Sequence record: PX915677.1
Reading direction: 5' to 3' (one strand)
DNA: 64,000 nt
Origin: a phage
Part shown: positions 29,392 through 64,000 of the stretch, piece by piece
Layout of the letters: each line of letters starts with the position of its first letter
How positions within the stretch are numbered: position 1 is the first letter of the stretch
The notes under the pieces: generated by a model
The model's database searches: none
Seen by the model: only the letters and a program-made list of their open reading frames with translations
Told to the model about the DNA's origin: nothing
Translations under genes and position numbers: made by a program

Positions 29392-29400
29392 TATACATTA
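29392..29400 (-). promoter_or_regulatory. candidate phage-specific promoter element TAATGTATA (minus strand)
   Basis: 59 nt upstream of SSB-like gene start 29332. Confidence 0.4.
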
Positions 29401-29463: not shown

Positions 29464-29472
29464 TAATGTATA
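29464..29472 (+). promoter_or_regulatory. candidate promoter element TAATGTATA (plus strand, orphan)
   Basis: Same 9-mer on the opposite strand inside the 415-bp ORF-free region 29333-29748. Confidence 0.25.
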
Positions 29473-32705: not shown

Positions 32706-34550
32706 TTAGTGTGTATGCATCCAGTTAAGTCCAATCTGACAATCAGATGCCAGAGGACATTCCATATTCAGATACTCGCCAGCTTTCTTAACACAAAGCT
32801 CGGTGTGCTCTTTGAGTTTCTGTACATCATTACGGTTTACTGAGAATTGACCTTCATCGTGCATATCAATTACCTTAGCACAACGAACCTTATCTTTCTC
32901 AATCCACTTGTTAAGGAACATCATAGCATATTTCATAACAACAGCACCAGCACATTGCAGGAGTGTGTTAAGGGCTTTATGAACCATAACCTTACCAGTG
33001 GCATCCCGTCTCATTGTAATCTTACGACCATCAACTCCAATCAAGTATCCTTGAGCAGCTTTCTCTGTCATACGATCAATGAGGATTGCAATACATGGGT
33101 TCTCTGCTAAGAAACGTGCTCGCATCACTGAACCTTCGTCAGCCCCACCACCTACAATTGAACCAAGCTTAGCATCACCAGCACCATAGTTGAATGCGTA
33201 GATAAACGTCTTAGCGTTGTCACGAGTAGGAAGACCAGCAAGTTTCTGGTTGTGGGAGTGGATATCACCTTCAAGGAGAATATCACGATACATAATAGCA
33301 GAAGCTAAACCACGTTCTGCCAGAGCTTTCTTAGCTGGGTTGTTCTCTTCAATTGCCTCAGCAAGCATATCCCTACACTCTTTAATGAGGTAGTGAGCGA
33401 GCATACGAAGTTCAAGTCCAGAACCATCATACCCTAAGAATACTTCTTTACCAGCGGGTATGTAATATTTGTAAGCACCTATAGGTTTATCTTTCTTCCC
33501 CGGCTTACCTTTCTCGTAAATTACGTTAGTACCTTTTCGTATATAACAACCATCAGGAACAACGTTAGTAATAACGAAAGGACGAGAGTGATCACTGTCT
33601 GAGTTATAGTCAGACTCAAACAAACTGCGACACTCGTGACCAAACAGACCACGGGAGGGAATATTAACCACGATACGATGTTTGAATCGAAAAGTCGGCG
33701 TAGCGCAGCTGTTAGCTTCTGCCGAAAGTTTACCATCTTCGCGTTCCTTTGCTATGAGTCCACTGATAAGACCTAGCCTGTGAGCCGCTACAACGCGTCT
33801 CTTAAGCAAACTTCCGACACTCCCTAGCTCACCCCCTAACCCTTCTTCAAGAGTCTCCTCGAGGTTTGTAGGAGCTGTAGGCCACTTGTTTGATGTGGCT
33901 AGTGCTTTCTTAATCTCATCAAACGTTACAGGATTACGGCGATTAGGGTTCAACCCCAAACCAAATACGTAAGCCTTCATGTAATTCTTAGTCTTAAACC
34001 TGAAATGCTTTTCTAAGAACTTCTTAATATCAGCGTCAACCATCTCGGCTGTCTGCTTCTGCTTAGCATTGCCTCGCATCCAAGCAGTATACCATGCTTG
34101 GTATGTTCCATACTTTCTCATATCTTTCTTAATTTCGAAAGTATTCCAAGGCTTCTTAGATACGTTAAACTCTGGAGGAAGGAAGCCCTCATCCATAAGA
34201 GCTTCTTTAACTCGTGCATCTTTAGATGGGTCAAAGTCTACATATTCGACACAGGTGAAAGCTCCACCAATATCTTCTCTCTTCAGCCCAACCCTATCAC
34301 AATAGGCTTGAGGCCACTTCTGTAAAGCTCCAGACTTCTTAAACGGCTTCATATAAGTAGAGCCATCTAATCTCATCTTAGGTAAGAGAGGAATCAACTC
34401 TCTGTCAATATTAACAATAATCTCTTTAAGGAGGTGAACATACCACCGAGCATTTCTTCGGTTGAAACTCACTCCGTGCTTTGCTTGCTTAGAGATTATA
34501 TCAGCGACAGTCATCTCTGTCAAAAATGGAAGAGCGTCCGGGTTGCTCAC
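32706..34550 (-). CDS. DNA polymerase, family A, polymerase domain only (no 3'-5' exonuclease domain)
   Basis: Motif A DGSGLELRMLAHY, motif B RDNAKTFIYAFNYGAG, motif C VIDMHDEGQF. Confidence 0.85.
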   Translation of the reverse strand: MSNPDALPFLTEMTVADIISKQAKHGVSFNRRNARWYVHLLKEIIVNIDRELIPLLPKMRLDGSTYMKPFKKSGALQKWPQAYCDRVGLKREDIGGAFTCVEYVDFDPSKDARVKEALMDEGFLPPEFNVSKKPWNTFEIKKDMRKYGTYQAWYTAWMRGNAKQKQTAEMVDADIKKFLEKHFRFKTKNYMKAYVFGLGLNPNRRNPVTFDEIKKALATSNKWPTAPTNLEETLEEGLGGELGSVGSLLKRRVVAAHRLGLISGLIAKEREDGKLSAEANSCATPTFRFKHRIVVNIPSRGLFGHECRSLFESDYNSDSDHSRPFVITNVVPDGCYIRKGTNVIYEKGKPGKKDKPIGAYKYYIPAGKEVFLGYDGSGLELRMLAHYLIKECRDMLAEAIEENNPAKKALAERGLASAIMYRDILLEGDIHSHNQKLAGLPTRDNAKTFIYAFNYGAGDAKLGSIVGGGADEGSVMRARFLAENPCIAILIDRMTEKAAQGYLIGVDGRKITMRRDATGKVMVHKALNTLLQCAGAVVMKYAMMFLNKWIEKDKVRCAKVIDMHDEGQFSVNRNDVQKLKEHTELCVKKAGEYLNMECPLASDCQIGLNWMHTH

Positions 34551-35278: not shown

Positions 35279-35533
35279 TTAAACTCCTTTAGGGAATGGG
35301 ATGAGATTTTCTACTGCAACACGGAAAGATTTTTCTACGTTCTTATTCTTATAAGAAATGAATTTACCATCAGCACCACGAAGGATTACATTAGTGCGAG
35401 CTGTTTTTGGGTTAATCCCAATCATCCGTTCGATGATCTTGTTTGATTTGTTGTGGTGGTTAGTGAAAGTCCACTTAACAATCTTGCCATCTCTGGTTAC
35501 ATCAAAAATATTTACGATTTTTACAATAGACAT
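35279..35533 (-). CDS. hypothetical protein, tandem paralog 2
   Basis: See 34993..35277. Confidence 0.45.
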   Translation of the reverse strand: MSIVKIVNIFDVTRDGKIVKWTFTNHHNKSNKIIERMIGINPKTARTNVILRGADGKFISYKNKNVEKSFRVAVENLIPFPKGV

Positions 35534-35567
35534 ATTTATTACCTAAGAAGTTTATTTTGGTTTATAT

Positions 35568-35596
35568 AAAAGAAAAGGCCACCCATTTGGGTAGCC
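35568..35596 (-). terminator. rho-independent terminator (minus strand)
   Basis: ggcuaccc-aaau-gggugguc-type stem perfect only with G-U on minus-strand RNA, followed by UUUUCUUUU. Confidence 0.6.
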
Positions 35597-35601
35597 TCAT
35601 A

Positions 35602-35919
35602 TTACGATGAGCTTAAAGCTCCTTTGCGTGCTCCAGCTGCTTTTCCAGCTCGATCACCACTTTTGCCGCCGTTTGAACGGTTTGAGCTGACTGATTCAAC
35701 ACGTAAGTTGCTTGACGCATTAGAGCCTCCAGACTTGACAGCTCGTTTGTGTCCAACGTCTTTACCTCTGACAGCAGCTTTTCCATCGCGCTTTTCAACG
35801 ATGCGACGTGCACGGTGGCGCTGAGCATCTCCGCTCTTGCTCCCAACGCCTGTTTCACCACGGGCAATTGCGGTACGTCTTTCTTGTGCATAATCTCTCT
35901 TTCCTACATGATCTGCCAT
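35602..35919 (-). CDS. basic Lys/Arg/Gly/Ser-rich low-complexity protein
   Basis: SD aaggag; TAATGTATA element 36 nt upstream and terminator downstream; A/T-rich third codon positions match the genome, unlike the overlapping frame 35613..35891. Confidence 0.5.
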   Translation of the reverse strand: MADHVGKRDYAQERRTAIARGETGVGSKSGDAQRHRARRIVEKRDGKAAVRGKDVGHKRAVKSGGSNASSNLRVESVSSNRSNGGKSGDRAGKAAGARKGALSSS

Positions 35920-35955
35920 TTAAAACTCCTTAATATATCAGTGTACACTAAGGAG

Positions 35956-35964
35956 TATACATTA
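35956..35964 (-). promoter_or_regulatory. candidate phage-specific promoter element TAATGTATA (minus strand)
   Basis: 36 nt upstream of ATG 35919. Confidence 0.4.
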
Positions 35965-35975
35965 TAAGTTACTGT

Positions 35976-36713
35976 TTAAGCTTTCTTTTCCATTGCTTTA
36001 ACAATCGCCTTACAGAAACCAGAACGAACAATATCATCTGATTCACCATCTACAATCTCAGCAAACTCATACAGATCGTGTTCATCAATAAAGTTAGTAG
36101 CCCAAGTTAGACCACTCTCGCGACCACGCATATCATGCTGGTTTGTATCACCCATACAGAACAATTGAGAGGTTTCTCCCAATCGAGTCATGATGGAGAA
36201 GGCTTCATCCTTAGTTGTGTTCTGGAACTCATCAACAATAACAATAGCATCATTGAAAGAACGACCACGGAGATATTCCAGAGGTACAAACTCAATGTTA
36301 CCATTTCCGATTTGGCATTCATAGAATCCCTTACCATATCGCTGAGTAATAACATCAATGATAGGCATCAGGTAAGGCTCAAACTTCTCACGCATTCCTC
36401 CCGGAAGTAACCCAAGAGAGTTTCCCATGCCAACCGAAGGGCGACTCAGAATGATCTTCTGAATCTTACCACTCTTCAGTGCATCGATAACCGTGGAAGT
36501 GATTACAAAGGTCTTACCACAGCCCGCAGGAGCGTCTGTGAACACAACTTGTTTAGTCTTAATAGCATTGAGTAGCTCAGACTGAAACTGGTTCTGAGGG
36601 ACTACAGGCTTTGCTAAAACCACCTCTTCATACTCTCGCTTACCTTTACGAGTAACAAGTGCTTCCCGACGAAGGTCTTTCCGTGATTCTTTCCGTGATT
36701 GACGACGACTCAT
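35976..36713 (-). CDS. PhoH-like ATPase
   Basis: Walker A VFTDAPAGCGKTF, Walker B-like IVIVDEFQN; PhoH family size. Confidence 0.7.
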   Translation of the reverse strand: MSRRQSRKESRKDLRREALVTRKGKREYEEVVLAKPVVPQNQFQSELLNAIKTKQVVFTDAPAGCGKTFVITSTVIDALKSGKIQKIILSRPSVGMGNSLGLLPGGMREKFEPYLMPIIDVITQRYGKGFYECQIGNGNIEFVPLEYLRGRSFNDAIVIVDEFQNTTKDEAFSIMTRLGETSQLFCMGDTNQHDMRGRESGLTWATNFIDEHDLYEFAEIVDGESDDIVRSGFCKAIVKAMEKKA

Positions 36714-40532: not shown

Positions 40533-40604
40533 AACTCTCTCCTGTAAAATACAAATTCTTATTGTACTCTATATACATTTGAGAGTTATCATATCTACTA
40601 CCAA

Positions 40605-59487: not shown

Positions 59488-59563
59488 TGGTGCGCCCTAC
59501 AGGACTCGAACCTGTAACCAATAGCTTAGAAGGCTACTGCTCTATCCATTGAGCTAAGAGCGC
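59488..59563 (-). tRNA. tRNA-Arg (anticodon TCT)
   Basis: Hand-folded cloverleaf: acceptor GCGCTCT/AGGGCGC, D-arm GCTC-AATGGAT-AGAGC, anticodon loop CTTCTAA, T-arm ACAGG-TTCGAGT-CCTGT, encoded CCA. Confidence 0.8.
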
Positions 59564-63341: not shown

Positions 63342-64000
63342 TTACCACTCGTAACTTACACCAGCGCCCAGAACAGCGTCACTCTCTGAAGTCATTGCCA
63401 CTGATGCTTTAGTTACTACGTTTTCATTGAAACGAGCACTAACACCAATAGCAAGAGCAGATTCACCATCGTAAGCACCTACCCCAGCACCAACAGAGAA
63501 AGCAGATCCTTGACTTACTTGCGGGATGTTAGCCATTGCAGCCACGCCAGAAATACCAGCAGAGGCATGATCACGGTTACGGTCTACTTGTTTTTGCAAA
63601 GAAGCAAAACGTTTATTGGTGGATTGTTCCAGAGCTTTGATGGATTTGGCGTTAGCATTAACGGCAGACATATCTGCATCTTTACCATTTTTGCCATTTA
63701 ATCCGTCAACGCCATTCAAACCTGCTGCACCAGTTAGGCCAGTTTCGCCTCTCTTACCATCTGCACCAGAATCACCTTTTTCACCTTGAGCGCCTTGTTC
63801 TCCATCAATGCCATCTTTACCATCAATGCCATCTTTACCATCAATGCCATCTTTACCATCAATGCCATCTTTACCATCAATGCCATCTTTACCATCAATG
63901 CCATCTTTACCATCAATGCCATCTTTACCATCAATGCCATCTTTACCATCAATGCCATCTTTACCATCAATGCCATCTTTACCATCAATGCCATCTTTAC
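63342..64000 (-). CDS. collagen-like repeat protein with YadA-anchor-like C-terminal domain (5' partial, continues beyond window)
   Basis: Frame of listed ORF 63342..63719 stays open upstream through uninterrupted Gly-X-Y triplets (GET GLT GAA ... then (GKDGID)n); C-terminus GVAAMANIPQ...GAGVSYEW resembles trimeric autotransporter anchor. Confidence 0.55.
   Translation of the reverse strand, partial: KDGIDGKDGIDGKDGIDGKDGIDGKDGIDGKDGIDGKDGIDGKDGIDGKDGIDGKDGIDGKDGIDGEQGAQGEKGDSGADGKRGETGLTGAAGLNGVDGLNGKNGKDADMSAVNANAKSIKALEQSTNKRFASLQKQVDRNRDHASAGISGVAAMANIPQVSQGSAFSVGAGVGAYDGESALAIGVSARFNENVVTKASVAMTSESDAVLGAGVSYEW
63802..64000. repeat. perfect 18-bp tandem repeat array, at least 10 copies, truncated by window end
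   Basis: Unit ccatctttaccatcaatg repeated head-to-tail from 63811; encodes (GKDGID)n on the minus strand. Confidence 0.9.

Follow-up and report, generated by a model that had tools for sequence, protein, structure and literature searches.

A conserved basic protein of phiEco32-like phages as a predicted minimal member of the HNH superfamily

Phages are known to encode HNH enzymes of about 100 amino acids (aa) that nick DNA (PMC3592412, PMC5304195). For the podovirus phiEco32, later papers from the Severinov and Djordjevic groups, which cite the primary work, describe a single-element promoter, tAATGTAtA, that is read by RNA polymerase with the phage sigma factor gp36 and precedes the genes 6, 13, 26, 40, 58 and 68 (PMC8948821, PMC4331800), with transcription starting 6–8 bp downstream of the element (PMC8948821). 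The DNA of phages tf, LUZ24 and their relatives carries localized nicks at TACT/RTGMC, for which the nickase was not identified (PMC3517423, PMC11780129). Here, we analyzed a 64,000-nucleotide (nt) stretch of phage DNA (sequence record PX915677.1), called the window below, and focused on the gene of a basic 105-aa protein at 35602..35919 on the minus strand. Judged by protein identity, this gene is the Kuravirus orthologue of phiEco32 gp58 and SU10 gp056, and its product belongs to the family PHROG 4590. The gene, its promoter and its family are already on record without a published function, and the family is an uncharacterised subfamily of a known superfamily. We propose, with a probability of about 0.6, that the gene encodes a cysteine-free basic HNH-family protein, a core component of the replication module, which would nick or cut DNA and would be expressed in the middle phase through a translational gate.

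The window was assigned to the Kuravirus/Gordonclarkvirinae (phiEco32-like podoviruses) by megablast of the region 35400-36100, which matched 99 phage records at the DNA level, among which were 93 Escherichia phages and 3 Shigella phages about 75–78 kb in size. The orthologues phiEco32 gp58 (phi32_58), SU10 gp056 and ShigP1_00095 are 97–100% identical to the window protein and annotated as hypothetical. They share with the window gene the slot between PhoH and the small pre-polymerase genes as well as the promoter; there is no material difference, and the window gene is another isolate of the same gene. An earlier note on this DNA had listed the 105-aa open reading frame (ORF), an overlapping ORF, the element TAATGTATA, a strong Shine-Dalgarno sequence and a terminator, and all of them are present on the minus strand at the positions given below.

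In the PHROGs database, the window protein matched phrog_4590 (unknown function) over its full length with E = 7.7e-41. At least 200 homologues were found in a database of 5.8 billion proteins, and a profile search of 1.8 billion cluster representatives gave 320 clusters, almost all of 80–115 aa. Among 46 diverse members, 24 residues were invariant, namely R8, E13, A17, R20, G21, E22, T23, G26, S29, D31, R34, H35, A37, R38 and R39 in the N-terminal half and H57, G64, N71, L72, N80, G84, G85, G88 and K93 in the C-terminal half. The family motif V-D-H57-K-x3-K-x-G-G-S-N-x2-S-N71-L-R-V-x5-N80, which reads DVGH57...GGSN...N71L...N80 in the window protein, marks a predicted HNH (beta-beta-alpha-metal) core at residues 53-82 (35674..35763, minus strand). 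The Pfam family PF01844 (HNH) was matched by 34 of the 46 members at E <= 1 (best 5e-4) and HNH_3 by 14 of them. The best scores were just under the gathering thresholds (20.6 vs 21.4 bits for HNH and 22.7 vs 24.8 for HNH_3), and these near-threshold matches in relatives mapped onto the 53-82 segment. Searched against 1.8 billion sequences, the family profile matched proteins with above-threshold PF01844 domains (P0218, 2.7e-7; P0261, 5.6e-6), and hhalign of the family against one PF01844 protein gave a probability of 97%. The AlphaFold model, with a mean predicted local distance difference test (pLDDT) score of 68 and about 78 in the core, contained a strand at 53-57, a strand at 72-76 and a helix at 77-82. 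In BFVD, a database of predicted viral structures, the top matches were small phage proteins named 'HNHc domain containing protein'. Depositors had also labelled relatives in this direction ('HNH endonuclease signature' for TL gp25, 'HNH endonuclease' in UniRef and 'McrA' at JGI, the Joint Genome Institute). These profile comparisons showed that PHROG 4590 is homologous to HNH domains, with the putative catalytic His57 and the Asn71 and Asn80 positions invariant.

The small phage HNH nickases, such as Gme HNH (4h9d), GVE2 HNHE (5h0o), phage Gamma HNH and the HK97 gp74 type, are likewise about 100 aa long and share with the family the His...Asn...Asn motif on a predicted strand-strand-helix core; the profile homology and the best structural matches support this comparison. 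In contrast to them, the family is cysteine-free, stays below the Pfam gathering thresholds, has a Gly for the Asp in Kuravirus and includes an N-terminal segment of its own, a conserved family-specific helix-loop-helix (RDYxQERxTAIARGETGxGSxSxDAxRHRARR). The HK97 gp74-type terminase HNH proteins have a [CxxC]2 site and a terminase/cos location, whereas the family has neither and sits in the replication module. Rare metagenomic proteins of 786 aa (P0205), 573 aa (P0227), 450 aa (P0231) and 252 aa (P0260) carry the family domain at their C-terminus, with the N-terminal segment included in the domain; the remaining N-terminal parts of these long proteins had no Pfam or PHROG match and hence gave no functional hint.

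Several points weigh against the enzymatic assignment. The window protein alone gave no match in the Pfam and NCBIfam searches, Pfam HNH included, and a profile search of the PDB sequences gave no match even at E <= 10; a Foldseek comparison of the predicted model with the PDB was not significant. Cysteine is absent from 117 of 120 members, so the family lacks the [CxxC]2 zinc site that characterizes many phage HNH enzymes. Moreover, the residue before the putative catalytic His is Gly56 in the window protein and in all Gordonclarkvirinae; of the 46 aligned members, 42 carry Asp there and 2 carry Glu. In the DH, EH or HH arrangement of HNH nucleases, this residue binds the metal, as the Asp does in Cas9 (D839-H840), I-HmuI (D74-H75) and T4 endonuclease VII (D40-H41). 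The Kuravirus protein could be catalytically impaired by Gly56, and for every member of the family the enzymatic role is assigned from sequence. The Gordonclarkvirinae proteins have Asp54 two residues before Gly56, and the G56 clade is under purifying selection with H57, N71 and N80 kept.

By analogy with the known enzymes, metal-dependent DNA nicking or cutting is most likely the activity of the PHROG 4590 proteins. In the proposed mechanism, the many Arg and Lys residues would bind DNA and a one-metal HNH reaction would nick or cut it; His57 would be the general base, and Asn80 would bind the metal. The change from Asp56 to Gly in the Gordonclarkvirinae clade may be made good by Asp54 or by a partner. 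The predicted nicking or cutting would serve phage DNA metabolism.

The composition of the protein bears on a second reading. Of the 105 residues, 70 are Gly, Ala, Arg, Ser or Lys, and the isoelectric point (pI) is 11.5 (family median 11.35). The earlier note had described a low-complexity protein and suggested a DNA-condensing or histone-like factor. The low complexity is confined to the C-terminal tail, and residues 8-88 form a highly conserved domain that is predicted to fold. Since the invariant residues of the family are those of an HNH motif (His57, Asn71, Asn80) with PF01844 profile matches, we replaced the histone-like reading by that of a minimal HNH-family nuclease-like protein, as predicted from these matches. 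The protein might still be an abundant basic protein without catalytic activity that binds DNA or has an architectural role, with the HNH scaffold kept only as a DNA-binding fold. Such a role would agree with the pI, with the tail rich in Gly, Ser, Lys and Arg, with the strong promoter, ribosome site and terminator, and with the loss of the Asp before the catalytic His in the Kuravirus clade (D56G). However, all 46 members keep H57, N71 and N80, also those of the G56 clade, which is itself under purifying selection, and a purely architectural DNA binder would have no reason to hold both the catalytic His and the Asn constant. In addition, the Pfam, NCBIfam and fold searches gave no similarity to HU, IHF, H-NS or other nucleoid proteins, and the two peptides found in an SU10 lysate do not suggest a very abundant protein. 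We consider the architectural role unlikely.

The family has a core-gene distribution in phiEco32-like, 7-11-like, LUZ24/tf-like and other phages, and in all phages examined the gene was located within the module of replication and nucleotide metabolism, next to DNA polymerase, exonuclease, ribonucleotide reductase or PhoH genes. On the minus strand of the window the order is PhoH-like ATPase (35976..36713), the 105-aa gene, three small genes and DNA polymerase (32706..34550). The placement between PhoH and DNA polymerase is found in Kuravirus, Suseptimavirus and Nieuwekanaalvirus; in metagenomic relatives the gene lies 3' of the NrdD/NrdG genes and 5' of the polymerase, in GAP52, 7-11 and LAh_6 it is close to the polymerase and thymidylate synthase, and in tf and TL it overlaps the 3' end of the polymerase 3'-5' exonuclease gene. 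With an HNH motif, its own promoter and terminator, a hairpin over the ribosome site as in T4 I-TevI and Aeh1 mobE, an unusually high identity across distant phages, and genuine homing endonuclease genes inserted adjacent to it in relatives, the gene might be taken for a free-standing homing endonuclease, that is, a selfish mobile gene which is in the replication module by chance. This is very unlikely, as sporadic absence was not seen: the gene is present in 99 of 99 DNA-similar records and in 262 phage records, syntenic even in distant genera. It is also under purifying selection, with ratios of nonsynonymous to synonymous substitution rates (dN/dS) of 0.11-0.30, its product of about 100 aa has no extra DNA-recognition domain, and its G+C content at third codon positions (GC3) matches the host phage and gives no sign of recent acquisition. 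The higher G+C content of the gene (0.51 vs 0.42) was considered as a mark of foreign origin and rejected; the excess lies in codon positions 1 and 2, the GC3 is typical, and the amino-acid composition accounts for the difference.

Separately, the intergenic spots directly 3' of the gene, and in phiEco32 5' of it, were observed to be an insertion hot spot for HNH and endonuclease VII homing-type genes (locus L008 884-1378 in Bas89; L021 1498-1791, SU10 gp055; L017 4341-4748; L019 4330-4821; L007 1086-1418, phi32_59). DNA matches in two pieces in SGF2, EC.W2-6, YW01 and YF01 fit such a hot spot, and a homing-type gene appears to interrupt the DNA polymerase gene of L017 as well.

In tf, LUZ24 and Rembedalsseter phages, a PHROG 4590 member is always carried beside the polymerase exonuclease gene. 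The family might supply the site-specific nickase of tf/LUZ24-type DNA. The motif TACTRTGMC was not enriched in the window, with 2 exact copies vs 1.9 expected and 35 one-mismatch copies vs 47 expected; a k-mer scan of the window for over-represented, strand-biased 8-12-mers found only the coding tandem repeat at the window end, and one literature search found no report of nicks in Kuravirus/Gordonclarkvirinae DNA. Because the motif is not enriched and there is no other strand-biased repeat, the nickase idea stays a minority possibility, and we regard it as quite doubtful. A nickase role could hold for the Asp56-type members but not for the G56 clade. If the idea is true, packaged DNA with nicks at motifs of their own would be expected in Kuravirus, 7-11, GAP52, Aeromonas, Vibrio and Proteus phages; alternatively, the G56 clade would have changed the enzyme into a binder that does not cut.

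The assignment of the protein depends on the reading frame. A second ORF of 92 aa (35613..35891, minus strand) lies in the +1 frame relative to the 105-aa ORF and within it. The earlier note had favoured the basic protein on third-position composition, which proved sound: the GC3 of the basic frame (0.32) falls within the 0.30-0.40 of six neighbouring genes, whereas that of the alternative frame is 0.645. Conservation of the two frames in relatives pointed the same way. By tblastn, the basic protein matched 262 phage records, with 57–67% identity in Pseudomonas (Bruynoghevirus, tf), Aeromonas, Vibrio, Salmonella 7-11 and Cronobacter GAP52 phages, about 51–52% in Proteus phages and a weaker match in a Planktothrix phage; matches of the alternative-frame protein were confined to the 99 DNA-similar records. 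In ECBP2 the identity was 72% for the alternative frame vs 88% for the basic frame. A codon alignment of ten Gordonclarkvirinae contained 24, 10 and 54 variable columns at basic-frame codon positions 1, 2 and 3, which makes the second codon position of the alternative frame the most variable one. Pairwise dN/dS was 0.11-0.30 in the basic frame vs 1.3-2.4 in the alternative frame. Furthermore, a mass spectrometry study of SU10 had detected the coding sequence (CDS) 56, a hypothetical protein of 10.8 kDa, by 2 peptides with 18.3% coverage, among the middle gene products (PMC4281155). SU10 gp056 corresponds to the basic frame (104 aa, 10.83 kDa) and equals the window protein minus one C-terminal residue (99% identity). 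Substitution pattern, dN/dS and the published peptides thus show that the basic frame is the selected and translated one.

The earlier note had also allowed for dual coding, and in this reading the 92-aa ORF would be translated as well into a lineage-specific helical protein. None of the 99 DNA-similar records closes the ORF, nor do two more distant contigs (main-frame synonymous divergence, dS, 0.7-0.9), and phages tf and TL also have an open +1 frame. Its openness over at least 92 codons occurred in 5% of random back-translations with neighbour codon usage, which speaks for dual coding, but in 38% with the gene's own codon usage; codons with T at position 2 are rare in the basic frame, which is why the ORF is open. 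Several stops close the +1 frame in the metagenomic P0017 contig, GAP52, 7-11 and LAh_6. Its dN/dS of 1.3-2.4, with the second codon positions the most variable, shows no purifying selection, its product loses identity faster, its GC3 is atypical, and Pfam, PHROGs and NCBIfam searches with the product gave no family match. Judged as an overlapping gene, the +1 frame thus lacks purifying selection, and composition can explain its openness (0.05-0.38). The overlapping ORF is most likely no gene and a compositional by-product of the Gly/Arg/Lys/Ser-rich frame. Diagnostic peptides of the 92-aa ORF would be AEMLSATVHVASLK and TLDTNELSSLEALMR. In the deposited phage tf sequence, the CDS tf_29 (L013 2975-3289, 'contains one transmembrane region') lies in the +1 frame and the family protein in the other frame; tf_29 looks mis-annotated, as the wrong frame of the same stretch.

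A residual doubt about dual coding comes from the synonymous sites of the main frame. The proportion of synonymous differences (pS) is 0.37-0.53 in the gene, below the 0.54-0.70 of the flanking genes. Codons 28-41 (35799-35840) form a run of 14 codons with zero synonymous change in the ten Gordonclarkvirinae (permutation P = 0.0003), and codons 66-75 and 84-88 likewise have no synonymous variation, whereas synonymous sites elsewhere in the gene and in the neighbouring genes are close to saturation. However, the constraint is local and not ORF-wide, and the 14-codon run is broken in the next relatives out. Translation of the second ORF is on the whole highly improbable, and we keep the basic frame as the coding one. 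Candidate causes of the invariant codons are local recombination near the insertion sites of homing endonucleases or a lineage-specific cis element. Whole-mRNA structure was weak as a cause (z = -1.6), and the palindrome CGTGCACG inside the constrained stretch was rejected as a repeated site, as it is unique in the window.

Expression of the basic frame would start from the promoter element TAATGTATA at 35956-35964 (minus strand), a phiEco32 gp36-type phage sigma site. The window contains 5 exact copies of the element vs 0.67 expected, a number that was reached in 0 of 100 shuffles, and the element is invariant in 10 Gordonclarkvirinae including phiEco32. By this match, the element is the real, already published gp36-dependent promoter of gene 58. 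With the spacing of 6–8 nt published for phiEco32, transcription would start at 35948..35950 (minus strand). The Shine-Dalgarno sequence AAGGAG (35926-35931, minus strand) lies 6 nt 5' of the ATG. Directly 3' of the stop codon there is an intrinsic terminator (35566..35598, minus strand) with a 10-bp stem (35598..35575) containing 6 G-C pairs, a 4-nt loop and a U-run (UUCUUUU). Its folding energy of -18 kcal/mol (z = -4.0) was equalled by 0 of 200 shuffles. The terminator claimed in the earlier note is therefore real, and its position is conserved with a differing stem sequence in the Gordonclarkvirinae, two metagenomic relatives, GAP52, 7-11 and LAh_6. Insertions of HNH or endonuclease VII homing genes behind the gene have displaced the terminator in Bas89, SU10, the P0017 contig and L017. 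The gene had further been called a highly expressed, stand-alone transcription unit. We infer high expression from these signals only. Its own promoter and terminator agree with a separate unit; however, no terminator was found in the interval from PhoH to the promoter, so read-through transcripts should also enter the 105-aa gene.

In such read-through RNA, a leader hairpin is predicted at 35925..35956 (minus strand), with the 5' arm at 35956-35944, the loop at 35943-35938 and the 3' arm at 35937-35925. Both the minimum-energy and the centroid folds (centroid -14.7 kcal/mol) contained the 13-bp stem, in which ACUCCUUAGUGUA pairs with UAUAUUAAGGAGU, and the 3' arm holds the Shine-Dalgarno sequence AAGGAG. 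RNA begun at the inferred start is without the CUCC that pairs with GGAG, and its folding energy is only -3 kcal/mol. Ten phages share an identical 44-nt block that runs from the promoter to the ribosome site, with the flanks and coding regions diverged, and the other four TAATGTATA copies in the window lack the downstream CTCCTTA sequence. An Rfam scan of 35400-36100 gave chance-level matches only, far below the gathering scores. According to the folding models, the hairpin in read-through RNA probably hides the ribosome site, and the promoter-58 transcripts are without the 5' arm. Read-through RNA from upstream would thus fold the hairpin and hide the Shine-Dalgarno sequence; transcripts from the own promoter would start inside the 5' arm (35948-35950) and leave the ribosome site free for translation. 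This gate would confine the synthesis of the gp58-type protein to the middle phase, when the gp36 polymerase is active.

A number of observations count against the gate. The fold of the 86-nt leader was no better than that of shuffled sequences (z = -1.05), the invariant hairpin sequence gives no covariation support, and the start site is carried over from the phiEco32 literature and is an inferred one for the window phage. The same hairpin and promoter arrangement is described for the T4 genes e, soc, 49 and I-TevI and for the Aeh1 HNH gene mobE (PMC3014915), where the Shine-Dalgarno sequence is likewise sequestered in read-through RNA and the phage promoter lies in the DNA of the 5' arm. The difference is that T4 uses the sigma factor gp55 and phiEco32 uses gp36 with another promoter type, and that the gate in the window is a predicted one. 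It appears that a T4-like translational gate works here in combination with a promoter and a sigma factor of quite another kind.

At 35939-35948, exactly at the inferred transcription start, lies a perfect 10-bp palindrome, AGTGTACACT, which hardly varies among relatives (one loop change, in NJ01). By analogy with the autorepression of I-TevI it could be an operator, or it could merely be part of the RNA hairpin. The leader palindrome GTGTACAC was rejected as a repeated site, as it is unique in the window.

Several other features of the window were recorded. A divergent pair of TAATGTATA elements at 29392-29400 (minus strand) and 29464-29472 (plus strand), 64 nt apart, is presumably the switch region that separates the middle cluster on the minus strand from the late cluster on the plus strand. 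A promoter copy with one mismatch, AAATGTATA, at 40572 (minus strand) is probably the gene-68 promoter. A single tRNA-Arg gene (anticodon TCT) lies at 59488-59563 (minus strand). At 63802-64000 there is a perfect tandem repeat of the 18-bp unit CCATCAATGCCATCTTTA, with at least 11 copies of 100% identity, which runs off the window end; its minus-strand translation would be a Gly-X-Y-like repeat (KDGIDG).

In conclusion, a widespread core protein of several podovirus and other phage lineages, so far named hypothetical, is assignable to the HNH superfamily. The family is an unusually minimal version of HNH, with no cysteines, no zinc site and a pI of about 11. It is a concrete candidate for nuclease functions in the DNA metabolism of the phages that carry it, including the genome nicks of tf/LUZ24-like phages.

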